Virus genome (UHGV): UHGV-0039337
From: a virus
Reading direction: 5' to 3' (one strand)
DNA: 64,000 nt
Shown here piece after piece: positions 3,381 through 63,390 of the stretch. Both the position numbers and the translations under genes were made by a program. The notes under the pieces are model-generated. The model had not been told where the DNA came from. It saw only the letters and a list, made by a program, of their open reading frames with translations, and ran no database searches. The stretch's first letter is position 1. Each line of letters starts with the position of its first letter.

Positions 3381-4240
3381 TTATTCAATTGCTTCTTTTG
3401 CTGTTTCTCTTAATATATCTACTGTTAAATCTTCACGTACTATTACTTTTTTTACTGTAGGATCTCCTGGAACCTCAAATTTGGTTTCAAATAATATATC
3501 TTCCATTACTGTTCTTAATGCTCTAGCACCCATTTTTCTTTCTTTTGCTTTTTGTGCTATTTTAGGCAATGCACCTTCTTCTATGTCAAAATCTATACCA
3601 TCCATTTTAAATTCTTCTTTATATTGTTTTAATAAAGCATGTTTAGGTTGAGTTAGAATCTTAACCATGGCTTCTTCACTTAATTCATGATATACAGCTA
3701 ATAATGGACATCTGCCTATAACTTCTGGTATTATACCAAATTCTACTAAATCATCTGGTATGACTTGAGATATAACATTATTATAATCCATTTCTCCTTT
3801 TGATTCTGGCTTACCATTAAACCCTATGCCTACAGATCCTTTTTTAAGTCTTTTATTTATTATTTCTTCTAGACCTACAAATGCTCCACCTAATATAAAT
3901 AATATATTAGTAGTGTCTATTTTAACGCTTTTAGAATCTAATTTATTTAATTTAACGTCCATTTCGCAGCCTTCAATCATTTTTAGTATAGATTGTTGTA
4001 CTGCTTTACCGTTAACATCTTTGTTATCTCCTCTTGCATCAGATGCTTTAATTTTGTCAAATTCATCTATAAATACTATTCCTTTTTGTGTTTTTTCTAC
4101 GTCTCTACCTGCTGCGATATATAAATCTTTTATCATATCCTCTGTATCACGTCCAACATATCCTGTGCTTGAGAAAGAACTGGCGTCTTGTATAGTAAAT
4201 GGTATATCCATACAAGAACATATAGCTCTTATGGTTTCAC
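3381..4240 (-). CDS. clpX: ATP-dependent Clp protease ATP-binding subunit ClpX, exon 2
   Basis: Reading upstream of the ORF in frame gives SGKSETIRAICSCMDIPFTIQDASSFSSTGYVGRDTEDMI, which matches ClpX GSGKTLLAQTLA..PF..ADAT.LTEAGYVGEDVENI. Walker B IVFIDEFDKI and sensor regions are present. Joins exon 1 GPTG to exon 2 SGKS. Confidence 0.8.
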
Positions 4241-8237: not shown

Positions 8238-9494
8238 TTATTGTAAATCTGCAAATATTTTAGACATTTCACTTCTTACATCTACAGGTAGATACATAAC
8301 TCCGACTAATGGCTCGTTTTTTGATTGATCTATAAAAGCACTAAGTCCATTGTCTATTTTATATCTTTTTTCTGTTTGATTTTTTATATCGCCCATCATA
8401 ACAAACATAGAACCTTTACCTATTCTAGTACCTGCTACTTTTATAAGTTTTAACGATAAGTCTTCGGCTTCATCAAGTATAACTATAGTTCTATCTACTG
8501 ATACACCTTTTAAGTTTTGTACTATATCCATATCTAATTGATATCCTCTTCTTTTAGCTGCATCTTCATTTGTTGGATCAAATGCTTCTTTTACATCATA
8601 CATTGAATCATTAGTTAAGTATTGAGTCATAGGAGTGAAAAAGTGACCTAATTTTGCATAAAAGTCTCCAGGTAAATATCCTATCTCTGTTTCATCAACA
8701 GCTATTGGATTTCTTAGTAATAGCATTTTATCATATAATCCTGAATAAATTCTTTCTTCCATCATGTTTACGGCAAGTCGGCTTTTACCAGCACCATACG
8801 TACCTGCTATTACTTTTATAGGTACTTTATCATTATATAATAAATCCATAGCACAAGCTTGATATATGTTTAGTGGTTTTACTCTGGCGCTTTTATAATG
8901 TATGTCTACAAATTCTTCTGTATTTGCGTCCCAACGAACTGCTGATTCAGTATTAGTATCTGTATCATGTATTATTATATATTCATTAGCATATGGTCTT
9001 TTAGTTTCTAGCATGGCATACAATGCTTCATCATTTTCTTCTTCTGTACCATATAGTTCTATATAGCCTTTGTAGTCTTCTTCTTCATCTTCATCTTTAA
9101 TAGATATGGTAGGTATTTCTAATAGTTTAGCTTTTGCTTTCATACCATTATCATATGTTAATAGTTTTATGTCTACATTTTTTAAAGTGTTTTTCATGGA
9201 TACTAAACATGCTAATATTTTATTATCAGGTATTTTCATATTAAAATTATCTGGTAATGTTGCATTTTCTTGTATCGCTATTAAAATTCTATCTTCTTCT
9301 TCTAACTTATTTAATAATTTAAAAGCTTGACGTGCTTTATAATTTTTTTCTCCGTCTCCGAAATCTTTATGATTGTCAAGTTCATCAAGTACTACAGAAC
9401 ATACTAAAGCTGTTGCATTTTCTCTTTCTAATAATTTATCTACTCCCTCTGGGCTTTGCATAAGCGCTGAAGTATCACAGAATACATATTTCAT
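8238..9494 (-). CDS. PIN domain plus PhoH-like P-loop ATPase (YlaK-like)
   Basis: N-terminal PIN-like CDTSALM...VLDELD and Walker A VIAGTYGAGKSRLA typical of PhoH/YlaK proteins. Confidence 0.7.
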   Translation of the reverse strand: MKYVFCDTSALMQSPEGVDKLLERENATALVCSVVLDELDNHKDFGDGEKNYKARQAFKLLNKLEEEDRILIAIQENATLPDNFNMKIPDNKILACLVSMKNTLKNVDIKLLTYDNGMKAKAKLLEIPTISIKDEDEEEDYKGYIELYGTEEENDEALYAMLETKRPYANEYIIIHDTDTNTESAVRWDANTEEFVDIHYKSARVKPLNIYQACAMDLLYNDKVPIKVIAGTYGAGKSRLAVNMMEERIYSGLYDKMLLLRNPIAVDETEIGYLPGDFYAKLGHFFTPMTQYLTNDSMYDVKEAFDPTNEDAAKRRGYQLDMDIVQNLKGVSVDRTIVILDEAEDLSLKLIKVAGTRIGKGSMFVMMGDIKNQTEKRYKIDNGLSAFIDQSKNEPLVGVMYLPVDVRSEMSKIFADLQ

Positions 9495-10633: not shown

Positions 10634-11182
10634 TTACATATTATTGAATATTTTTTTATTTAAATCTTCTTCGGCTTTCTTAATTAATCTATTGTGTAAT
10701 CTGTTGTATATAGCACGACCATAATCCATTTCTTCTTTGTTGTATTTAAATACTTTAACTTCGAATAATTTAGTTTGATACCAGTTTATTTTAGTAAATA
10801 CTTCTTTGTATAATTGTACAAATATTCTCCATTGCTCAATTTCTTTAGTTGCCAAGATATTACCACTTTGAGTTTTGCCATTTTCTACCCAGAATTTATA
10901 CTTTCCAGTATTTATTTTACTATACAAAGAAGGATTAATATATATCTTTATTTGATTATAATCCTTCTTGTTTTCAATTATTTTAGATAAGTATCTATTA
11001 AGAATGTACAAAGCATTAGTGTCTTTGGCATATAATTCTGAATTAGTACATGGAAGTTTTTTACTAGTAAATCTTTCTAATGTACAATTAGCATAATTTT
11101 TAGCATCTTCTTTGCTATAACATGCAGTAAATATATTTCTTACATCACCATCAATTATAATGTTTTCAAATTTTTTATTCAT
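10634..11182 (-). CDS. hypothetical protein (182 aa)
   Basis: ORF in minus-strand array. Confidence 0.5.
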   Translation of the reverse strand: MNKKFENIIIDGDVRNIFTACYSKEDAKNYANCTLERFTSKKLPCTNSELYAKDTNALYILNRYLSKIIENKKDYNQIKIYINPSLYSKINTGKYKFWVENGKTQSGNILATKEIEQWRIFVQLYKEVFTKINWYQTKLFEVKVFKYNKEEMDYGRAIYNRLHNRLIKKAEEDLNKKIFNNM

Positions 11183-11979: not shown

Positions 11980-12063
11980 TGGAGCCAATAGTAGGAATTG
12001 AACCTGCATCTGTAAAGATAAAATAAATTATTTTTACCGTTCTTACAATTGAACTATATCGGC
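11980..12063 (-). tRNA. tRNA-like gene with an abnormally long (16-nt) anticodon-region loop; possible pseudo-tRNA or non-canonical tRNA
   Basis: Minus strand reads GCCGATA-TA-GTTC-AATTGTAA-GAAC-G-GTAAA-[AATAATTTATTTTATC]-TTTAC-AGATG-GCAGG-TTCAATT-CCTAC-TATTGGC-T-CCA. Acceptor, D arm, T arm (TTCAATT loop) and CCA are all recognisable. The anticodon stem GTAAA/TTTAC encloses 16 nt instead of 7. Confidence 0.45.
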
Positions 12064-12184: not shown

Positions 12185-12235
12185 CCAAAAAAGTTAGCTG
12201 ATGGAAAACTAGAGGTGATCTAAAACCATCAGCTT
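12185..12235 (-). terminator. rho-independent terminator: 9-bp perfect stem AGCTGATGG/CCATCAGCT followed by a T6 run (minus strand)
   Basis: Minus strand reads AGCTGATGG-loop-CCATCAGCTAACTTTTTTGG. Confidence 0.55.
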
Positions 12236-12257
12236 TAAAAAAAGGGGGTTGTATTAT

Positions 12258-12301
12258 GCCGTCCTTGTGGAATCGAACCACGGCATGTACCTGTAGGACG
12301 G
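12258..12301 (-). other. tRNA minihelix-like element (7-bp acceptor-like stem closing a T-arm with canonical GGTTCGATTCC loop; no D or anticodon arms)
   Basis: Minus strand reads CCGTCCT-ACAGGTACATG-CCGTGG-TTCGATT-CCACA-AGGACGG-C. An adjacent 7-bp hairpin GTCCCAG...CTGGGAC lies at 12310-12336. Confidence 0.4.
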
Positions 12302-12396
12302 ATATTAAGGTCCCAGGTTTCTAAAGTTTCTGGGACATTAATTAATAAACTATTTTTAACTAAAAGAATTACTGCTCTAGATTAATAAATTAGTAA

Positions 12397-12830: not shown

Positions 12831-13373
12831 TTAACTTTCTCTTTTATCAGTTCCTTTTTTGATTCCATATTGTCTACGCATAGACATTTCATAATCAAAT
12901 TTTAATAAAGCCGCTGGATCTTTGCTTGCTATTTTAGCACGCGATAAATTATAATTCCATAAATCTTCTTCTTCTTGTTGTTCATATTCAAATTCATCTA
13001 GGAATTTTCTTGCTCTAAAATCATTTATTTTATTAGCATAATTATTTATTTCTCTTATCTTTCTTGAAGTAAGATCTTCTGCAGCTACAGCTTTTTCAAA
13101 CACGTCTTCTATTGATTTAAATTTATTTAGTTTGGAAAGATCCTCTATTCCTGTAATGTTACAAGTCCCTCCGTTTTCATCTATATAATTATAAAATCTC
13201 TCAAAGTGTGTTTTTTCTTCTGCAGCATGCAATTTGAAATAAGAACTCATTCCTTCTAGATCCATAGAATCAAAATATGCGGCACCTGCTAAATAAAAAG
13301 TTTCATTAAATCTTTCATGATTCATATGATTATTTAGCATTTGTTCTAGTTTTTTATCTATCAATATCTCCAC
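12831..13373 (-). CDS. ferritin-like iron-storage protein (bacterial Ftn type)
   Basis: LEQMLNNHMNHERFNETFYLAGAAYF, HAAEEKTHFERFYNYI and FLDEFEYEQQEEE parallel E. coli FtnA motifs LNEQMNLELYSS, HAQEEMTHMQRLFDYL and FLQWYVSEQHEEE. Confidence 0.7.
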   Translation of the reverse strand: MEILIDKKLEQMLNNHMNHERFNETFYLAGAAYFDSMDLEGMSSYFKLHAAEEKTHFERFYNYIDENGGTCNITGIEDLSKLNKFKSIEDVFEKAVAAEDLTSRKIREINNYANKINDFRARKFLDEFEYEQQEEEDLWNYNLSRAKIASKDPAALLKFDYEMSMRRQYGIKKGTDKRES

Positions 13374-27005: not shown

Positions 27006-27500
<495 letters not shown>

Positions 27501-27503
27501 CTT

Positions 27504-35663: not shown

Positions 35664-36971
35664 TTAAAATTTATCACTCTCTAATAACTCCATAAGTTGT
35701 GGAATATCTACTCCAAACCCTTCTTCTATTATCGTTTTAGTTTTGGTTATATAACCATCCCAAGTAAACTTACTTATAGGTGCTTGATATTCAACTCTTT
35801 TATACTTAGGTTTCTTAGTAGCAGATGTGCCAAATAAGACTTTTGCTCTAAGAACTTCGAATGAATAACCTCTACCTGATTTCTCTATATTCTTAATTAG
35901 ATTATTAACACTTTCAGTATAAGCATTTGTAATGGTACATTCAAAGTAATTAAATATCTCATGCTTCCAGTTATCAACTGTTTTAGCAACTTCTTGATAG
36001 TATTTCATATCTTCTGGTATGCTTGCTTTCCATTCAAGATAAGCATTATAAGCATCGTTCTTATTCTCATACTTATATATCTGCCTAAACTGTTCTTTAA
36101 GTTCATATGCCAACTTTAACTGTGGAAACTCTGCAAATATTATTTCAAGTTTCCATATATCTCTAGCCTCTAAGTCCTCGTGATTCCTTAGAAGTAAGAA
36201 TCTTTCCTTTAATAACTTAGACCTTCGCTTAGCATCTAGAGTTGCTCTAAAAGCCTTTCTCTCGTTTTCTAGTGCCTTTGTAATAAGTTGTATTACATGG
36301 AATTTATCAACTATTACCATAGCATTTGGTAACACCTCATATACTGCCTCTTTGTAGTATCTCCACATATCTATTGTGACTACTTCTATATCATACTTGT
36401 TAGGCAATTTGTTTAAGAATGCTTTTACATCTGACTTCTTTCTGCTAGGCTGGATGTCTAATACCTTTCTACCAATTATATCTGTATAAACAGCTCTCAT
36501 GCTCTTATTTAGATGTGCTTCATCTATACCTAGTATAATTGGAGTAGTGTAGTCTAAATCCTTTTCTGTCTCTTTTACATAGCTCTCAAAGATACGTTTT
36601 ACTGTAGTAGGTGAAATACTATATTCTTCTGCTATATTAGCAAATGGCTTTTTAAGAGATTCTCTTTCTATCTGTTCTCTTAAACGTATAGTGATTTTAT
36701 CTCTATCATCTATGCTTTCATAATGCTGACTAAATGTACTTTTACAGTATTTGCATTTATATCTGTTAGTGTGTATTTCAATACCTACACGCTTTCCAAA
36801 ACTGTTTAAATCTCTTACAAACCTTTTAGACTTGCCATGCTTATAGTATTCCACTCCACCGCACTCAGGACATGCTAGAGGCTCTTTAACTGGTTTAACT
36901 ATTACTGTCATATCGTGTTCATCTTGTATTGTGTCTATAACTTCAAACTCTGGTAAATTTAGTATGTTCAT
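35664..36971 (-). CDS. ISL3 family transposase
   Basis: N-terminal zinc ribbon CPECGG...CKYCKS, HTH, and DDE region ILGIDEAHL...VTIDMWRYY; about 435 aa, typical of ISL3. Confidence 0.8.
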   Translation of the reverse strand: MNILNLPEFEVIDTIQDEHDMTVIVKPVKEPLACPECGGVEYYKHGKSKRFVRDLNSFGKRVGIEIHTNRYKCKYCKSTFSQHYESIDDRDKITIRLREQIERESLKKPFANIAEEYSISPTTVKRIFESYVKETEKDLDYTTPIILGIDEAHLNKSMRAVYTDIIGRKVLDIQPSRKKSDVKAFLNKLPNKYDIEVVTIDMWRYYKEAVYEVLPNAMVIVDKFHVIQLITKALENERKAFRATLDAKRRSKLLKERFLLLRNHEDLEARDIWKLEIIFAEFPQLKLAYELKEQFRQIYKYENKNDAYNAYLEWKASIPEDMKYYQEVAKTVDNWKHEIFNYFECTITNAYTESVNNLIKNIEKSGRGYSFEVLRAKVLFGTSATKKPKYKRVEYQAPISKFTWDGYITKTKTIIEEGFGVDIPQLMELLESDKF

Positions 36972-42802: not shown

Positions 42803-43564
42803 TCAATCATCTTCTTCAACTTCATATTCAAGCATTGCTTTATATAGTTTTTCAGGTATTATATCTCTATATTGATTAGCAACTTCTTTAATATATTTTT
42901 CTTTGAAATTTTTATAAACTTGAAATGCTTCTTCTGGTGTGTTATAGTATCCTAAAAAATTTTGCTTTTTGTCAGTATTACAATAAGCTTTATATTTTTT
43001 ACTTGATTTATTATAAGATACTCCAACTGGAAAATTACCTCTATCATTATTGCGTTTTGTAAATAATTTATTTATATTTTGAGGTACAAATATACAAGTA
43101 TCAGGACTGTATATTTTATTTCCTTTTATTAATATATCTTTGTCAAGATTCATTATTTGTTCTTCTATCTCATAATAATTATCTTCAAACCATTCAGCGA
43201 AATTTTGAAAATTATGCCATGGTTCATATACTTCACATTGTTCGTATGTTGGATGCTTTTGTATATATTTAGGATCATAACATCTACACAACATTCTATT
43301 CCATATGTCATAATGTTTTGTGTGTTTTCCATTTATTGATACATTGTATCTTCCTTCACCTATATAACCGGTGTTAAAAATTGTTTTTTCATAAGGACAT
43401 TTTACTCTACCGTTTATGAAATTAATATATTGCACATGTTCTTTTGTCCAGTCATATTCAGGGAAATATACATCAATATCATTATATTTTCTGTAATCGA
43501 TTATAATAATTTCATTACCAAAATTATTATGATTTATTGCGCCTATAATATTTTCTTTATCCAT
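42803..43564 (-). CDS. AP2-domain-containing homing-endonuclease-like protein (HNH/NUMOD-type phage endonuclease family)
   Basis: C-terminal AP2-like DNA-binding block GVSYNKSSKKYKAYCNTDKKQNFLGYYNTPEEAFQVYKNFKEKY. Confidence 0.5.
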   Translation of the reverse strand: MDKENIIGAINHNNFGNEIIIIDYRKYNDIDVYFPEYDWTKEHVQYINFINGRVKCPYEKTIFNTGYIGEGRYNVSINGKHTKHYDIWNRMLCRCYDPKYIQKHPTYEQCEVYEPWHNFQNFAEWFEDNYYEIEEQIMNLDKDILIKGNKIYSPDTCIFVPQNINKLFTKRNNDRGNFPVGVSYNKSSKKYKAYCNTDKKQNFLGYYNTPEEAFQVYKNFKEKYIKEVANQYRDIIPEKLYKAMLEYEVEEDD

Positions 43565-44675
43565 TTGCTTTATCCTTTTCTTTTTTTCTATATTCTTTTA
43601 TTAAATTTTTTGTATAATTAAATAGACTATTTGGATCTTTTCTTTGATATTCTACACGTGTCCATTCCATAGGTGTTCTTGAATAATAGTCTCCATATCC
43701 TCCTGGTGCAACATGACCATTGTAAACTCCCATGCCTATTTCTGTACCATAATATAAACATATGTCACTATCATCAAAAGAAAATAACATTTCTAATGCT
43801 TTTTTAACTCTATAAATATCATGATTAAGTGATACTGCTATTCTTGTTTGATCATGATTATCCAAGAATACAACATCGTATTTAGGATCGTTTTTGACTG
43901 TTAATGGTTCACCTGTATTTAGTGCATGTTTTATCCAACCTGATTCTTCAAAATTAAATGCTTTTCCTATTGTTCTAGCATATTTATTAGATTCTTCATA
44001 AGTATCCCAACATTCAGCAACTAAATAAGCATCAGGTTTTATTTTATGAACCATATGACTAAACCAGCCCCAAAATTCTATTGGATCACAACCATAACTT
44101 ATATATGGAACTGCGTCTAATCTAAATCCATCTACATTATGTTCTATCCAAAATCTTACGATATTTGTTATCATATTTCTTACTTTTTGACTACTACCAT
44201 TTAAAGCTGGCATACTAGCATCCCATGGAGCATAATAGAATTTACTATTTTCATAACAATATCTCCATTTGTTATCTATTTGAGTGTCGCTCCAAAAATA
44301 ACAATCATTTTCTCCTTTGATGCTCTCTCTGAATAACTTATTATGATAATCAGTATGACATAATACTAAATCAAGAAATATTTCTATATTTTTATTATGT
44401 GCTTTAAATATAAATTTGTCAAAATCTTCCATTGTACCATACTGTTTTTTTACTTGATAATAATTGCTAACATTATATCCATGTTCACTTGGAGAATCAA
44501 AAATAGGAGTTAGCCACAAACTGCTAACTCCTAATTCTTCTATATAATTTAACTTATCTGCTAAGTCTTTAAAGTCTGTACAAAATGCTGGTGTATAAAT
44601 TTCGTATATTATTCTTCGTTTATTATTCAAAGTATCACATCTCCTTTTAATTTTAAATCTTTTGATCAAACTCAA
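43557..44675 (-). CDS. GH13 alpha-amylase family glycoside hydrolase
   Basis: All four GH13 regions: DLVLCH, GFRLDAVPY, AECWD, FLDNHDQTR. N-terminal YEIYTPAF...LGVSSLWLTPIF. Confidence 0.85.
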   Translation of the reverse strand: MSLIKRFKIKRRCDTLNNKRRIIYEIYTPAFCTDFKDLADKLNYIEELGVSSLWLTPIFDSPSEHGYNVSNYYQVKKQYGTMEDFDKFIFKAHNKNIEIFLDLVLCHTDYHNKLFRESIKGENDCYFWSDTQIDNKWRYCYENSKFYYAPWDASMPALNGSSQKVRNMITNIVRFWIEHNVDGFRLDAVPYISYGCDPIEFWGWFSHMVHKIKPDAYLVAECWDTYEESNKYARTIGKAFNFEESGWIKHALNTGEPLTVKNDPKYDVVFLDNHDQTRIAVSLNHDIYRVKKALEMLFSFDDSDICLYYGTEIGMGVYNGHVAPGGYGDYYSRTPMEWTRVEYQRKDPNSLFNYTKNLIKEYRKKEKDKANG

Positions 44676-53779: not shown

Positions 53780-53800
53780 TTTAAAGTCCAAAGACTATTA
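53780..53800 (-). promoter_or_regulatory. conserved pre-RBS box copy 2 (TAATAGTCTTTGGACTTTAAA)
   Basis: Upstream of GGAGG-ATG of the 53605-53763 gene. Confidence 0.5.
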
Positions 53801-54854: not shown

Positions 54855-54874
54855 TTTAAAGTCCTTCGACTATA
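54855..54874 (-). promoter_or_regulatory. conserved pre-RBS box copy 4 (TATAGTCGAAGGACTTTAAA)
   Basis: Upstream of CTGGAGG-ATG of 54629-54843. Confidence 0.5.
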
Positions 54875-55891: not shown

Positions 55892-55912
55892 TTTAAAGTC
55901 TCTCGACTATTA
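55892..55912 (-). promoter_or_regulatory. conserved pre-RBS box copy 5 (TAATAGTCGAGAGACTTTAAA)
   Basis: Upstream of AAAGGA-ATG of 54923-55873. Confidence 0.5.
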
Positions 55913-58394: not shown

Positions 58395-58415
58395 TTTTAA
58401 GTCTCGCGACTATTA
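58395..58415 (-). promoter_or_regulatory. conserved pre-RBS box copy 6 (TAATAGTCGCGAGACTTAAAA)
   Basis: Upstream of TAGGAGG-ATG of 57260-58378. Confidence 0.5.
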
Positions 58416-58446: not shown

Positions 58447-58502
58447 TAGAACCATAGTAATATAAAAAGACACCCGTATTTCTACGAGTGCCTTACGTAT
58501 GT

Positions 58503-60242
58503 CTATTTGTTTTCTGATAAATTTATTTTTTGATCTGCTATAATGACAGATTTAAAGCATATTGTATTAGTTACTAAGAAGTCATCTGAGTTATTGAAGT
58601 ATGCTTCATTTACTTTAGCTGCTGCTGTTATACTTCCATCTTCTGCTATTGCGATTACTCCATAGTTTTTTGGTACTCTTGCTATTCTTAATACTGTTGC
58701 GTTTTTAGCACTATTATATCCTACAGCTGTATCGTTTTCTAAATCTTCTACTTTAGCTTCTGCCCATATTGAGAACTTGCATACATCCTTACTATAACTT
58801 TCTATTGGTAAAACTGTTGCCTTAGGATATCTGTCAAGTATAGTTTGTAAAGGATTGTATAATGCTACTACTTCACCGTCATTTACTTTAACTTGTCCAT
58901 TTTGGAACGCACTTACAATATGAAGCATGCCACCATATCCGTATCCGTTTGTTATGTCTATTATTTCGCCTTCTTCAATGTCTATTTCTGTTTCGTAGTC
59001 AACTGGAACTTCTATAGTATCTTTACCTGCATATTGTGCTACAAATACATCTCCAAATAGCATTGCAGTTTTCCAGATGTCTATTTTATATTCATGGTCA
59101 GATCCTATTGCTGGTATAATGTATACTTCACCTTTTCTAACTTTTACTTCAGATATTGCAAGTTTCATTGCTATTTTAAATACGTCAGATTGGTCTATTT
59201 CTAAATCAGCTGCCATATTATAAATACCTGCTAAACATCTTTCTCTAGTGTCGTTGTCCATGTCCATTACATTGTCTTGTGCTTCTCCTATTACTGTTGC
59301 TAATAGGAAATTATTTCTTTCTGTTAAGTCTATATTATCGTATTGTTTATAGCTGTCATAGCTGCATTCTTTTTCTAATAAGTCAATAAATCCTCTCATA
59401 GATTCTTCCATAGTGTCAACTGCAGCTTGTTTTAATAATCCTATTGCATCTTCTTTAAAATCTTTGCCATCATATTCGTCGCTTACTTCTATAGTGTAGT
59501 TTTCTTTAGTTCTTCTGTAGTCTTTAATGTTTGATTGTAATTTCTTTATTGCGCCTATTACTGTAATGTGTGGGCTAATTAATTGTTTCATTGTAGTATA
59601 AAATGTATAGTCCACATGTTTAGTTACGTCTATAGTTTGTTCTCCTAACCCTCTAGTTAAGAACACAAACTCTCTTTGGAATCTTTCTAATTCTTTTAAT
59701 GTCGTATTAGCATTTATAGCATTAAGTGCCATTTCTGCTTTTCTTAAATAAAAGTCATTAACACCATAGACATATCTTTTCATGTTGTATTTATTTTCTG
59801 CTAACATTATGTCATTTTCATCATAGATAGGTTCTAATGTTGCTCCTGCTCTAGATTCTACTATTTCAGCAGCTTTTTCAAAGTTTACGCATTTAGTTTG
59901 TCTGTCCCATACTTTCCAGTATAGGCCGCTGTACATTAATGCTACGTCAACTGCATTTTGTCCTAGCACTCCGTCTTCGTTTACAAATTGTCTAAAGTCT
60001 AACGCGCATACATTCATGCCAGTTCTTATAGTACTTGCTATTTCGTCGCCTAGTGCTTGAGTTGACATTATTAATCCCATTTCGTCTTTTACTATTTTGA
60101 CATTAACTTTATTATTTATTATTTCTTTCTTAGTCATTTCAAATCTTTCACTAGTTGCTTTTTCTATTCTTTTAGCATTATTTCTTTCCATTAATTTTCT
60201 TCCTAAAGTATTAGTAGTTGATAGTTTCATAAAATTCACCAT
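58503..60242 (-). CDS. large hypothetical virion-module protein (579 aa; possible major structural protein)
   Basis: Long ORF, GC-richer, between the RNAP-like gene and the head-module genes. Confidence 0.55.
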   Translation of the reverse strand: MVNFMKLSTTNTLGRKLMERNNAKRIEKATSERFEMTKKEIINNKVNVKIVKDEMGLIMSTQALGDEIASTIRTGMNVCALDFRQFVNEDGVLGQNAVDVALMYSGLYWKVWDRQTKCVNFEKAAEIVESRAGATLEPIYDENDIMLAENKYNMKRYVYGVNDFYLRKAEMALNAINANTTLKELERFQREFVFLTRGLGEQTIDVTKHVDYTFYTTMKQLISPHITVIGAIKKLQSNIKDYRRTKENYTIEVSDEYDGKDFKEDAIGLLKQAAVDTMEESMRGFIDLLEKECSYDSYKQYDNIDLTERNNFLLATVIGEAQDNVMDMDNDTRERCLAGIYNMAADLEIDQSDVFKIAMKLAISEVKVRKGEVYIIPAIGSDHEYKIDIWKTAMLFGDVFVAQYAGKDTIEVPVDYETEIDIEEGEIIDITNGYGYGGMLHIVSAFQNGQVKVNDGEVVALYNPLQTILDRYPKATVLPIESYSKDVCKFSIWAEAKVEDLENDTAVGYNSAKNATVLRIARVPKNYGVIAIAEDGSITAAAKVNEAYFNNSDDFLVTNTICFKSVIIADQKINLSENK

Positions 60243-60354: not shown

Positions 60355-62538
60355 TTATAATAAACTGCTAATGTCCATGTTGCTTAAATATTCAGCTGTT
60401 TGTTGCTCGTCTTGTTTTTCTTCTGTCGCAAACATAGGAGTATTCATGTTATATTCTATTAATGCAGCGTATCCTATGTTGTTTTCTCTTACTCTTTTTC
60501 TGACTATTAAACTTGTGTAGTCATTTATTATTTCTCCGTCATAATATAATCCTGTCACTATTTTGCCATCTTCTAATACTGTAAATTCAGGATATATTAC
60601 AGTCACATCATCTCCGTCAAAATCTGATCCTGCTAATTGATGTTTAACTGTGTTGTCTTGTGCTAAGATGATACAATTATTAGGGCATTCATTTATGAAT
60701 TGCATATATTCTGGAGTTATGCCTCTTACTGCTATTTCTTCAGATAGTACCATATAAAATACTTCAAACTCATTATCACCTTGAGATGGAGATTTTATTG
60801 CTGTTGCTATTCTCATATTATTTAGTACTGTGTCTTTTTCTTCTTGTGTCATTGCAACATTTGCTTCTAATTGTTCTTTCGTTTGTCTGTATTCTCTTTC
60901 GAATGCACTACTATAAACTTCTAATGCTCTAACTTTCATAGTTTCACCTGTTGGCATTACATAGCTTACTAATTTTGATCCTAATACTTCTTTGCAGTCA
61001 TTCAATAAGTGATCTTCTGGGACCATTCTTAGATAATTGGAATTGATAGAAAGTTTTAAGTTTGCAACTCTATTTAATAATGCAGTGTCAAGTTGTTTAA
61101 TCTTAAAGTTGTTTAATAACTTATCTTCTTCTGCTCTTTCAGGTGCTAGGTTATAACAGTTAAAGTATGCTGTATTACTTAATCTTACAACATTATTTTC
61201 AAAACTTACTTTACCTTTAGCAGCTTCAGCTTCCACTAATTGTCTTTCAGTAATAGCTTTTACATATTTTATTGCATCTTCTAAGTCATCACGCAATTTA
61301 AATACAATCTGAGTTCCCATGTTGCCGTTAGTTCTATTTGACATATTTACTAAGCCTATTTCCATTGGGTCTATTGTGTCTTTTTCTACAATGTATTTTC
61401 CCCATTTAAAAGTATCTTTATCTGCCATTATGTTTATCTTAGCTGCTAATTTTACTAATTCTTTATCAGATAATTTAGTTAAGTCAACTTTATGTCCATC
61501 TTCCCAGCAGTAGCATTTATTTATGTCTAGACTCATCATCATTTTCATTGCTTTAACTTTTTGGTTTAAGTGATATGCTTTACCATGTCCTTTACCTGCT
61601 GCACCTTTTATTCTTCCTTGTATACTCATTCTTCTAGCTTGTGCTAATGATACTTTTTCTCCTGTTAGTTCGCTTACTATTTCGCTTACCATTCTATCTC
61701 CAAACACAAAGTATCCGTCTCTAAAGTTATTGTCAATGCTTTTTACTTCTGTATTTTCATCTTCAGATTGTATACTACCATTAAAGTAAAATACATTATT
61801 AGTTTTTCCAGCTTCTGTCCATAGTGTAGGAGTTGTTGCACATAAACTTATTCTTGATGCTATACCTGCTAAACTGTCAAAGTCCATATCTCCTTTAGCT
61901 GATTCTTTTTCCAATACTTCTGCTAATAATCCTCCTGTTAGATTGTTCATAGTCTCGAATTGTAAATCAGCATCATGGTTTGTAAAATAAACTTTAGACT
62001 TTTTGCCCATAGATGCGCTACCACTAGCTGGATAGAATGTTTGTCCATAGTTGTCTAATTTTAGTCCTGACAATCTTAGATCTTCATATTTTGATTCAGC
62101 ATTTTTAAATGATACTAATACTATGTTGTTGTACAATTTATAAGCAGATTCAGTTGGACCAGTTACTACTTGTCTAGTATTTCCTTCTCTGTCTATTTTT
62201 ACTTCTATTTGTTTAACTTCATTGTTTAATTCTCCAAATGCCAACACGACTGGACTATTTCCAACTGTTTGATATCCTGTTTCAATATGTCCAACATCGT
62301 CAATGTCTACAGTTTGTACTACTATAAAGTTAGCATTTCCCATTTCATCTTCGTACATTTTGTGCATTGCTTTTCTTTGTAATCTTTCAATGTTTGCTGC
62401 ACTTAAACTGTTGTTTGTTTTGCTTACGTTTTTTCTGATTCCTTTAAAATTATTAGTAGTAGATTTAGTCATAATGACCTCCTTTGCCCACGTATTAGCC
62501 AATACGCAGGACTTTGTGTTACTGCACTTCTTTACCAT
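60355..62538 (-). CDS. 727-aa protein with multisubunit-RNAP-like catalytic motifs (candidate single-chain two-barrel RNA polymerase of the YonO type, or beta-prime-like fragment); alternative: portal/other virion protein
   Basis: Near the C-terminus, LAGSDFDGDDVTVIYPE parallels the universal beta-prime motif NADFDGDQMAVHVP. Mid-protein, IQGRIKGAAGKGHGKAY loosely parallels the beta DPBB motif AGRHGNKGV. Confidence 0.35.
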   Translation of the reverse strand: MVKKCSNTKSCVLANTWAKEVIMTKSTTNNFKGIRKNVSKTNNSLSAANIERLQRKAMHKMYEDEMGNANFIVVQTVDIDDVGHIETGYQTVGNSPVVLAFGELNNEVKQIEVKIDREGNTRQVVTGPTESAYKLYNNIVLVSFKNAESKYEDLRLSGLKLDNYGQTFYPASGSASMGKKSKVYFTNHDADLQFETMNNLTGGLLAEVLEKESAKGDMDFDSLAGIASRISLCATTPTLWTEAGKTNNVFYFNGSIQSEDENTEVKSIDNNFRDGYFVFGDRMVSEIVSELTGEKVSLAQARRMSIQGRIKGAAGKGHGKAYHLNQKVKAMKMMMSLDINKCYCWEDGHKVDLTKLSDKELVKLAAKINIMADKDTFKWGKYIVEKDTIDPMEIGLVNMSNRTNGNMGTQIVFKLRDDLEDAIKYVKAITERQLVEAEAAKGKVSFENNVVRLSNTAYFNCYNLAPERAEEDKLLNNFKIKQLDTALLNRVANLKLSINSNYLRMVPEDHLLNDCKEVLGSKLVSYVMPTGETMKVRALEVYSSAFEREYRQTKEQLEANVAMTQEEKDTVLNNMRIATAIKSPSQGDNEFEVFYMVLSEEIAVRGITPEYMQFINECPNNCIILAQDNTVKHQLAGSDFDGDDVTVIYPEFTVLEDGKIVTGLYYDGEIINDYTSLIVRKRVRENNIGYAALIEYNMNTPMFATEEKQDEQQTAEYLSNMDISSLL

Positions 62539-62663
62539 AATTATTTTTAGGACATGAGTGCTACATCCCTTTATTTATAGTGTCTTTATATAGACACATA
62601 TAAGCCTATTAATAATTAATAGACCTATATCTATCCATATAAATGGATTTATCTTTTGTATAT

Positions 62664-62689
62664 AAAAAAATCAGTGCTTTAACACTGAT
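62664..62689 (-). terminator. rho-independent terminator ATCAGTG-TTAAAG-CACTGAT plus T7 (minus strand), overlapping the stop codon of 62671-63390
   Basis: 7-bp stem followed by TTTTTTT on the minus strand. Confidence 0.55.
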
Positions 62690-63390
62690 TGTTTAAATTC
62701 TGAAAAAGTTAATATCTTAGCCTTTTTTTGATCCCAATATGTTGATGCATATTCTTTTGTCCATTTCGCTAGATCAAAGTCTACGCAATTAGCTGGTACA
62801 AATCTGTCTATATATTTCCAGTATTTTTTCGCTAGGTTTATATGACCTTTTTTTCTCCAAGTGTCGCTTAACATATTGTGCATAATATATAAGTCATCTG
62901 GATTTATTTTTAATCCATATTTTTCAGATGACTTTATGCATCTGAAATATACAGTAGGACCGTTTAATGAACCTAATGTAATTTCATTATTGCTTATATC
63001 CTTTACAGCTTCCTTAAAAATTGATAATCTTCCATTGTTGTAAGCTATCTTTTTGAAGTTTTGATCGAATCTTTTAATGTGTTCATGCACACTATAGTCA
63101 ATTACGATTATGTCTAAACTTTCTCCATCTAGTTCATCTCTCAAAACGTCAATGATATGAGATTTCTTATTGCTATAATCTTTTTTATATTCATCTTTTA
63201 AGTCTTTTATAGATATAAAAAGGTCTATATCGTAGAACTCTTTATCGTAATAGCAATCAGCTAAAGATCCTCCAGCTGCTGTTATTGGACCGTATTTTGC
63301 AGACATAATCTCTACTGTCTTTCTTATTTTATTGAATCTTTCATTATTTCTTATTTTTTTCATTATTTCCTTTGCAGTTATTTTTTTCAT
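62671..63390 (-). CDS. nucleotidyltransferase-fold protein (pol-beta superfamily GS...DxD signature)
   Basis: ITAAGGSLADCYYDKEFYDIDLFI fits hG[GS]-x(9-13)-D-h-[DE]-h. Confidence 0.45.
   Translation of the reverse strand: MKKITAKEIMKKIRNNERFNKIRKTVEIMSAKYGPITAAGGSLADCYYDKEFYDIDLFISIKDLKDEYKKDYSNKKSHIIDVLRDELDGESLDIIVIDYSVHEHIKRFDQNFKKIAYNNGRLSIFKEAVKDISNNEITLGSLNGPTVYFRCIKSSEKYGLKINPDDLYIMHNMLSDTWRKKGHINLAKKYWKYIDRFVPANCVDFDLAKWTKEYASTYWDQKKAKILTFSEFKQSVLKH

Follow-up and report, generated by a model that had tools for sequence, protein, structure and literature searches.

A two-barrel RNA polymerase core and its conserved neighbour in very large, uncultivated human-gut phages

The 64,000-nucleotide stretch of the virus genome UHGV-0039337 analysed here (the window) has a G+C content of about 27% and carries almost all of its genes on the minus strand. 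At 60355..62538 on this strand lies an open reading frame (ORF) of 727 aa with an ATG start, which an earlier reading of the letters alone (herein the original prediction) had put forward as a phage RNA polymerase (RNAP), and which we found exactly as described. The frame stands as read, but its likely product is shorter. The true start is very probably M23, giving a 705-aa protein encoded by 60355..62472, since homologs are 703-711 aa long and cover 97% of the query, since a GGAGG Shine-Dalgarno (SD) sequence lies 5 nt before M23 and none lies before M1, and since a conserved leader hairpin, with compensatory changes in a 44%-identical relative, overlaps the 22 additional codons. Residue numbers herein refer to the 705-aa form, and 22 is added to obtain the 727-aa numbering. 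The domains, among them two double-psi beta-barrels (DPBB), are laid out as follows; RdRP denotes the RNA-dependent RNA polymerase family of Pfam.

60355..62472, minus strand: gene for the polymerase catalytic core, stop codon included, 705 aa from the probable start M23; the 727-aa ORF reading runs to 62538
62068..62400, minus strand: N-terminal alpha/beta domain (about aa 25-135; helix 25-40, strands 49-121, helix 126-135); limits approximate
61345..62064, minus strand: beta-like barrel DPBB-B (about aa 137-376), placed by invariant columns; limits approximate
61573..61599, minus strand: AGKGHGKAY segment (aa 292-300), with the K294 codon at 61591-61593
61042..61344, minus strand: helical connector between the barrels (about aa 377-477; helices 386-417, 435-449 and 451-470); limits approximate
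60523..61041, minus strand: catalytic barrel DPBB-A, beta-prime-like (about aa 478-650; K560-x-P562 and E568 are invariant); limits approximate
60610..60633, minus strand: catalytic loop AGSDFDGD (aa 614-621), invariant and the best Pfam RdRP stretch
60358..60522, minus strand: C-terminal tail (aa 651-705), short and poorly conserved, with a predicted local distance difference test score (pLDDT) <50 at 676-691 and 698-705

Structure prediction followed by fold comparison, the check proposed with the original prediction, matched two-barrel RNAP folds; DPBB folds were predicted, and no homology to portal or terminase proteins emerged. The AlphaFold2 model of the core, built from 27 aligned sequences, had a mean pLDDT of 85.2 and a predicted template modelling score (pTM) of 0.82, and its 22 best Foldseek matches were all to QDE-1, RDR2 or gp66. 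QDE-1 gave a Foldseek E of 2.3e-13 and a score of 13.9 in a second fold comparison (415 residues aligned), plant RDR2 gave 3.6e-11 and 12.6, and gp66 of phi14:2, a crAss-like phage, gave 1e-8 and 12.6 (493 residues aligned). P23-45 gp96 scored 11.9 in the second comparison and was not among the Foldseek matches listed, while the structure 8f72, labelled 'Phage P32 gp64', gave a Foldseek E of 1e-3 and was not among the second-comparison matches listed; P74-26 gp62 gave 4e-3 and 9.9. The largest subunits of cellular, phiKZ and AR9 RNAPs matched weakly in Foldseek (about 3e-2 and above) and scored 6.9-8.5 in the second comparison, the cellular ones aligning over only 136-178 residues, and isolated DPBB domains, for which Foldseek was not applicable, scored 5-6. 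At the level of sequence, the Pfam RdRP family PF05183 was matched at 26.6 bits against a gathering cut-off of 23.8 (E 3e-6), centred on the DFDGD loop. As the fold matches, the PF05183 match above its curated cut-off and the eight-residue catalytic signature described below agree, our data support the identification of the protein as a two-barrel RNAP with both barrels in one chain, the beta-like barrel preceding the beta-prime-like one as it does in YonO and QDE-1. Two DPBB domains forming one active site, a feature of the superfamily, are present, and the protein is predicted to carry out template-dependent polymerisation of nucleoside triphosphates (NTPs) relying on its Asp triad. The N-terminal domain is provisionally assigned, by analogy with a motif common to single-subunit two-barrel RNAPs (PMC10770324).

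The peptide SDFDGDDVTVIYP, which the original prediction had likened to the beta-prime active site, was confirmed at residues 638-650 of the 727-aa numbering, with the D of DFDGD at window position 60624. The long ORFs of the window contain the generic pattern DxDxD 18 times, which makes it uninformative; exact DFDGD occurs once, where chance would supply about 0.01 by a rough estimate from residue frequencies, which is not a computed value. The LAGxDxDxD signature was present in every full-length relative, and D617, D619 and D621, the predicted Mg-binding triad and putative counterpart of QDE-1 D1007/D1009/D1011, were invariant across all 20-27 aligned relatives. In the 27-sequence alignment 18 columns were invariant: S154, R207, D252, G253, Q285, R287, K294, K356, Q388, K392, K560, P562, E568, A614, G615, D617, D619 and D621. 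Ruprich-Robert and Thuriaux described eight residues that are invariant in all two-barrel RNAPs, in QDE-1 D709, R738, K743, R962, P964, D1007, D1009 and D1011 (PMC2919709). The eight positions correspond here to D252, R287, K294, K560, P562, D617, D619 and D621, all invariant, with equivalences drawn by motif pattern and order and not by three-dimensional superposition; K560, a Lys replacing the Arg of QDE-1 R962, is the sole change among them. We accordingly take K560-x-P562 as the likely counterpart of QDE-1 R962-x-P964 and Rpb1 R446-x-P448.

The beta-like barrel can be read in the same way. S154, R207, D252-G253, Q285, R287, K294 and K356 appear, from their motif pattern, to follow QDE-1 R671/D709/Q736/R738/K743/K767, with Q285-x-R287, K294 and K356 matching the Q736/R738/K743/K767 part of it. 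In QDE-1 complex structures D709 helps to hold Mg B, and Q736, R738, K743 and K767 touch the RNA 3' end and the NTP phosphates. Column 251, immediately before D252, is never D or E in the alignment, and the lack of an acidic residue before the DPBB-B Asp is a reported trait of the RdRP/YonO-like branch (PMC2919709). AGKGHGKAY, which had been compared to the beta-subunit motif AGRHGNKGV, was confirmed at residues 314-322 of the 727-aa numbering, 325 residues upstream of the catalytic peptide, in keeping with the 'about 300' first given. In the model this segment is the second strand of a beta-hairpin (E284-289/E293-300). It is therefore the right segment of the beta-like barrel, but the register of the comparison is probably four residues off, since the family-invariant residue is the first Lys, K294, which comes after the invariant Q285-x-R287.

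The chain ends soon after the catalytic loop. Only 84 residues follow D621, including an 11-residue helix and the low-confidence tail, and distant relatives stop 32-60 residues past the triad. The bridge helix of QDE-1 lies 70-80 residues past its triad, the bridge helix and trigger loop of gp66 lie about 164 and about 235 residues past, respectively, and the Thermus-phage enzymes also carry these elements in-chain (PMC10770324). An in-chain bridge helix and trigger loop C-terminal to the triad, a feature of the QDE-1 clade, was not found in the core. Given these distances, the modelled tail appears too short for both elements, which would make the protein a core chain without room for the post-catalytic elements.

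Comparison with known polymerases places the core closest in fold to the eukaryotic RdRPs QDE-1 (Neurospora) and RDR2 (plant), both of PF05183, although its identity to them is only 11-14%. As in the QDE-1 clade, a helical connector (helices 386-470) links the two barrels within a single chain, a trait common to QDE-1 and crAss gp66. It differs in size (705 aa, against a catalytic region of >1,000 aa in QDE-1 and RDR2), in its presumed DNA template, in lacking, within its chain, QDE-1's bridge helix, trigger loop, neck and head, and in the K at the R962 position. gp66 of phi14:2 (PDB 6VR4) is a virion-packaged protein of 2,180 aa with DFDID, a distorted Mg site, a cleft-blocking domain and, unlike the core, its own bridge helix and trigger loop as part of the chain. 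The gp66-type length of >2,000 aa, DFD(I/V)D and cleft-blocking domain were not seen in the 705-aa core with its DFDGD, and sequence similarity was not significant (tblastn E=6, about 2 bits by hidden Markov model, HMM). The P23-45/P74-26 RNAPs (gp96 in the virion, gp64/gp62 non-virion) form a separate structural subgroup of complete single chains (PMC10770324), with much weaker Foldseek support (E 1e-3 to 4e-3). In multisubunit beta/beta-prime enzymes, including the split phiKZ/AR9 and cyanobacterial gamma/beta-prime forms, the barrels lie on separate subunits with sandwich-barrel hybrid motif and flap inserts and many extra domains. The core shows no such RpoC-like arrangement, in which beta-prime domains go with a beta-like barrel carried by another subunit, and Pfam detected neither beta nor beta-prime domains (RNA_pol_Rpb1/Rpb2) in its chain.

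The original prediction had specifically proposed an architecture of the YonO type. This stands as far as both barrels in one chain and their order are concerned, whereas membership of the YonO family has no link in sequence: hhalign gave a probability of 2.6%, the core HMM scored -14 bits against YonO, and tblastn against 50,697 phage records, SPbeta included, returned no YonO-like match. The two are alike in being phage single-chain enzymes with both barrels and a Firmicute host, and by eye in the ordered YonO motifs SSAGQIRTKK, TDG, VRLPWVKG, KSQFK, RSP and FDNDGD; YonO differs in having about 300 residues past the triad in-chain and in lacking a Pfam match. No YonO structure was among the fold-search matches, so that YonO is set apart here by sequence. 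YonO, from the Bacillus prophage SPbeta, is a proven DNA-dependent RNAP for late genes (PMC5467207), and the other characterised phage members of the clade, gp66 (bioRxiv 10.1101/2020.03.07.982082) and P23-45 gp64/gp96 (PMC10770324), are likewise DNA-dependent RNAPs. YonO-like genes are carried by the phages c-st of Clostridium and 0305phi8-36 of Bacillus (PMC7824862), and Faecalibacterium phage FP_oengus has a gene that resembles an RdRP (bioRxiv 10.1101/842583). Phage enzymes of the single-chain two-barrel branch are already known, and the kind is therefore not new.

The family itself is small and barely detectable. An exhaustive HMMER search found 28 relatives among 1.84 billion cluster representatives. 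Against PF05183 the relatives P0121 and P0140 scored 15.7-17.1 bits and others were unmatched, most relatives falling below the cut-off, and the family thus sits, as judged by its sequences, at the edge of that model. The polymerase had no PHROG match, no NCBIfam family and no PADLOC match; at the sequence level nothing in the PDB matched the protein by itself, its family profile or its catalytic fragment, and the motif was not found in the supplements of the P23-45 paper. tblastn against 50,697 deposited phage genomes gave no match at E<=1e-5, the sole relevant match at E<=10 being a crAss-like 'putative RNA polymerase' (E=6). The window showed no other candidate polymerase. A copy at 99% identity is present on 271-kb contigs from human-gut metagenomes, and other relatives lie on 146-265-kb IMG/VR viral contigs, one of them labelled as a Clostridium sp. 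metagenome-assembled genome. We found no description of this family, or of the split core-plus-partner architecture described below, in the open-access literature. The family itself, its occurrence in uncultivated gut phages of very large size, and the split architecture with its natural fusions appear to be new.

The partner is the gene immediately downstream of the core.

58503..60242, minus strand: partner gene, 579 aa, proposed to encode a second piece of the polymerase; its fold was not recognised
58467..58494, minus strand: terminator-like hairpin just past the partner gene (12-bp stem and T-run), from a consensus scan only

The partner had no Pfam, PHROG, NCBIfam, PADLOC or PDB match. 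A homolog lies directly downstream of the core in every split locus examined except one: these include L007, L008, L012 and L010, with core identities of 52%, 44%, 32% and 28%, respectively, and six more adjacent pairs in IMG/VR (L014-L019). In addition, the partner-family HMM matched the C-terminal extensions of 8/8 long representatives (1,335-1,916 aa) at 69-155 bits, in all eight beginning just past the core-homologous region. In P0129 the core spans 7-724 and the partner 793-1255, so that this protein is essentially core plus partner only. L020 from IMG/VR is a further fusion of 1,707 residues stop-to-stop (core 249-1114, partner 1136-1623), which brings the total to nine long relatives with the partner C-terminal to the core. 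Across the same phages, partner identity was 81-94% and core identity 74-94%. In L010 the core and partner genes each follow a leader of about 133 nt, much the same in both cases (about 80% identical); this leader, together with the terminator-like hairpins bracketing the pair in the window, points to co-expression. This is classic gene-fusion evidence, and it suggests that the core and partner proteins act together. Two partner segments, ALGDEIASTIRTG and TRGLGEQTIDVTKH, resemble by eye the cellular bridge-helix motif GLxDTAxKTAxxG, which we regard as a lead. Two side observations concern these loci: the L010 leaders, at 1413-1587 and 3577-3771, end in a hairpin and GAAAGGAG, and the N-terminal extension of the fused relative P0133 contains a Rho_N (SAP-like nucleic-acid-binding) domain at residues 403-438 (Pfam E 5e-9).

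A conserved leader precedes the core gene and is set off from the upstream gene by a second terminator-like hairpin.

62473..62600, minus strand: conserved 5' leader of the polymerase operon, from alignment with the L008, L007 and L012 leaders
62580-62597, minus strand: leader palindrome GTGTCTATATAAAGACAC
62545-62556, minus strand: leader block CATGTCCTAAAA, common to four diverged leaders
62486-62512, minus strand: leader hairpin, with compensatory changes in L008 and a predicted fold of -16.9 kcal/mol
62478-62485, minus strand: leader SD, abutted by the hairpin
62669..62690, minus strand: terminator-like hairpin closing the upstream gene, from a consensus scan only

The counterparts of the leader lie at 1-122 in L008, at about 4150-4300 in L007 and at about 5895-6000 in L012. 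Between the window and L008, about 110 nt of it are conserved better than the protein, and the leader may be a regulatory RNA or a promoter for the polymerase operon. Given the hairpin at 62669..62690, the polymerase gene and its partner appear to form a unit of their own.

The original prediction had also described a box upstream of the genes of the module that the polymerase was thought to head. The box is real and precedes six genes at 52.3-58.4 kb, but it is absent from the polymerase, 579-aa and 258-aa genes. AGTC-N4-5-GACTT(T/A)AA occurs in six copies between 52264 and 58411, all on the minus strand and each 2-8 nt before an SD, where about 0.02 would be expected by chance, and no further copies exist elsewhere in the 64 kb.

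58396..58411, minus strand: box copy 1, AGTCGCGAGACTTAAA, before the 372-aa gene
55893..55908, minus strand: box copy 2, before the 316-aa gene
54856..54871, minus strand: box copy 3, before a gene of about 70 aa
54611..54627, minus strand: box copy 4, with a 5-nt loop, before the 90-aa gene
53781..53796, minus strand: box copy 5, before a gene of about 52 aa
52264..52280, minus strand: box copy 6, with a 5-nt loop, before a gene of about 151-160 aa

By the scan, copy 1 comes after a terminator-like hairpin, and by eye hairpins also precede other copies. The box recurs in L006, which carries a fused polymerase about 30% identical, before an unrelated 90-aa gene. L008 has the variant GGCT-GACG-AGCC followed by TTAAAC, in which pairing is kept through changes on both sides at 3/4 stem pairs, and this compensatory pairing favours a nucleic-acid hairpin. 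We take these patterns as evidence that the box is a probable functional element, which might serve the phage enzyme as a promoter, be a host promoter that carries a 5' stem-loop, or act as an operator at the level of RNA. Hairpin promoters are known for the virion RNAP (vRNAP) of phage N4. A scan for sigma-70 promoters was uninformative in such AT-rich DNA, with 81 found against 63.5 expected. L012 contains a different repeated element, a hairpin with GCTGTCGC and then a ACAGTTTTGTGAA-like sequence, at about 11060-11160, 12220-12320 and 13000-13100, standing before three genes downstream of the polymerase operon; the hairpin-type box may differ from lineage to lineage.

The module itself did not prove to be a virion module: no capsid, portal or tail family was detected in the window, and the terminase lies outside it, in a divergent arm upstream of the polymerase arm and on the other strand. 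The polymerase heads a non-structural arm and not a recognisable virion module. Searches of the 372-, 258- and 316-aa proteins by Pfam, PHROG, NCBIfam, tblastn and PDB found nothing bar one borderline match, of the 258-aa protein to a PHROG 'major head protein' (E 1.6e-4). The genes recognised in the window are auxiliary or non-structural and include PhoH/PIN, SSB, a ClpP-like protease, AAA ATPases, PARG, ferritin, an amidase, HNH endonucleases, an alpha-amylase and an ISL3 transposase. The terminase large subunit, just outside the window (L001 262-2630, minus strand), is split by an intein with a LAGLIDADG homing endonuclease. By tblastn, deposited phages contained no match to the N-terminal terminase fragment or to the 862-aa protein beside the terminase; for what else lies in the divergent block no relatives were detectable there either.

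We consider the best overall explanation, at a probability of roughly 0.6, to be a two-barrel core that works with a partner as a non-virion polymerase transcribing its own phage's DNA. The gene would then encode the catalytic core of a phage two-barrel RNAP of the QDE-1/RDR/crAss-gp66/YonO clade. By analogy with QDE-1, D617, D619 and D621, together with D252 of the other barrel, would bind the two catalytic Mg ions, and R287, K294, K356 and K560 would hold the RNA 3' end and the incoming NTP. The data show the fold, the catalytic residues, the family distribution, the synteny, the fusion and the existence of the box; beyond these we infer a physical complex, a role for the partner, a DNA template, a timing of expression and a promoter, as follows. 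The working enzyme would be a complex of two polypeptides, of 705 aa and 579 aa and about 150 kDa, as suggested by the short post-triad chain, the synteny of the partner and its C-terminal fusion. Post-catalytic elements (bridge-helix/trigger-loop-like, clamp), which in characterised enzymes belong to the same chain, would come from the partner. The enzyme most likely transcribes the DNA of its own phage, of about 271 kb, would be expressed from a leader of its own where the long non-structural arm begins, and may act at phage-specific sites, for example the hairpin box AGTC-loop-GACTT(T/A)AA. Its fullest form, a heterodimeric minimal RNAP with the barrels on one chain, a fold-orphan partner in trans and short hairpin promoters in a hitherto undescribed lineage of Firmicutes gut phages (150-270 kb), we put forward only tentatively. 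Several observations weigh against one or another part of this explanation. The partner model was of moderate quality (pLDDT 75.8, pTM 0.53), the partner profile gave no alignment with crAss-like RNAP or YonO by hhalign or HMM, and L021 from IMG/VR had no partner at E<=1e-5. In some crAss-like genomes the RNAP is fused to neighbouring non-catalytic virion proteins, and fusion therefore proves linkage and not a catalytic role. The box is confined to about 6 kb; most diverged relatives lack it, as does the packaging arm over its available 7.8 kb, and the hexanucleotides that precede it, such as AATAAT and TATAAT, resemble the sigma-A -10 hexamer, so that host RNAP could use it. Finally, one of 68 ORFs scanned gave a weak Pfam Phage_antitermQ match (E 5.9e-6), which, if real, would mean that host RNAP is also used by the phage.

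The 705-aa chain alone might instead be the complete polymerase, with the 579-aa protein an accessory in promoter specificity or processivity, or one that is co-packaged or co-ejected. Both barrels and all eight catalytic residues do lie within this chain, the partner has no recognisable RNAP fold, the crAss-like fusions with non-catalytic neighbours are comparable, and the Thermus-phage RNAP chains 8f72 and 8f5m are shorter still (592-593 residues). The structurally characterised two-barrel RNAPs compared here all have a bridge helix past the catalytic barrel, however, whereas the 84 residues available in the core (about 32 in relatives) are poorly conserved and partly of low confidence, and the partner is more conserved than the core; we therefore regard self-sufficiency as possible but doubtful. 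A polymerase packaged in the virion and injected with the DNA for the earliest genes, like crAss gp66, N4 vRNAP and P23-45 gp96, would contradict the non-virion part of the preferred explanation. Its closest phage structures, gp66 and gp96, are indeed virion enzymes, the fused relatives of 1,335-1,916 aa with extra N-terminal regions recall large virion RNAPs, and the gene is about 2-6 kb from the packaging arm. Yet it lies in the non-structural arm with its own leader, among small genes and a nucleotidyltransferase-like gene, and no protease, transmembrane or tape-measure-like domain was detected in the polymerase, which leaves a virion enzyme unlikely in our estimation. We think it more improbable still that the protein acts on RNA or single-stranded DNA (ssDNA) in some role other than mRNA synthesis, such as replication priming, antisense or double-stranded RNA production, or counter-defence in a QDE-1/RDR-like manner. 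The best sequence and fold matches are RNA-silencing polymerases, QDE-1 accepts both RNA and ssDNA templates, and an SSB gene lies within the window, but all characterised phage members of the clade transcribe phage DNA, and there is neither a PADLOC match nor any associated gene resembling those of RNA interference (RNAi). A chance DFDGD in a non-polymerase protein could appeal to the frequency of DxDxD and to the lack of a PHROG or PDB sequence match; the fold matches and the invariant catalytic residues effectively refute it, and we give it next to no weight.

Among the relatives of cellular RNA polymerases, the phage single-chain two-barrel RNAPs (YonO, gp66, gp64, gp96) are the simplest; they have been proposed as ancestors of the eukaryotic RNAi polymerases, and only a handful have been characterised. 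The present family adds a compact, well-modelled member, barely visible to sequence searches, that occurs in human-gut jumbo phages which are abundant yet uncultivated. Should the core-plus-partner explanation be true, these phages offer a natural experiment in which the two-barrel active site is separated from the elements that usually follow it, and they would help to define a minimal transcription machine. If the enzyme is a heterodimer, its fused and split forms document the evolution of subunit architecture in the branch that gave rise to the eukaryotic RNAi RdRPs. A new principle would follow only from confirmation of both a post-catalytic module supplied in trans and hairpin promoters. 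The polymerase, partner, leader and box also provide a handle for annotating the transcription programme of a mostly unannotated phage lineage.

A number of minor observations concern neighbouring and more distant parts of the window. Just upstream of the polymerase operon, a 239-aa protein at 62671-63390 on the minus strand matches the PHROG nucleotidyltransferase phrog_1614 (E 2.6e-6), which might conceivably connect it with RNA metabolism, for instance with tailing or capping. A tRNA at 11983-12063 (minus strand; Rfam RF00005, 47.7 bits, 81 nt) was not reported by ARAGORN and may be an atypical or intron-containing phage tRNA. Three genes on the minus strand are unusual for a phage: an alpha-amylase catalytic-domain protein at 43557-44675 (E 2e-54), a microbial-type poly(ADP-ribose) glycohydrolase at 524-1312 (E 5e-27) and a PIN-PhoH fusion at 8238-9494. 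Matches to ferritin-like, TrpP transporter, ClpP and spore-protease-like (DUF1256) proteins lie elsewhere in the window. A complete ISL3-family transposase at 35664-36971 on the minus strand (Pfam DDE_Tnp_ISL3, E 6e-61) marks an insertion sequence in a jumbo phage arm, and a perfect (TAA)n microsatellite of about 16 units occupies 27453-27503 on the same strand, directly upstream of the start of the ORF at 27006-27452.

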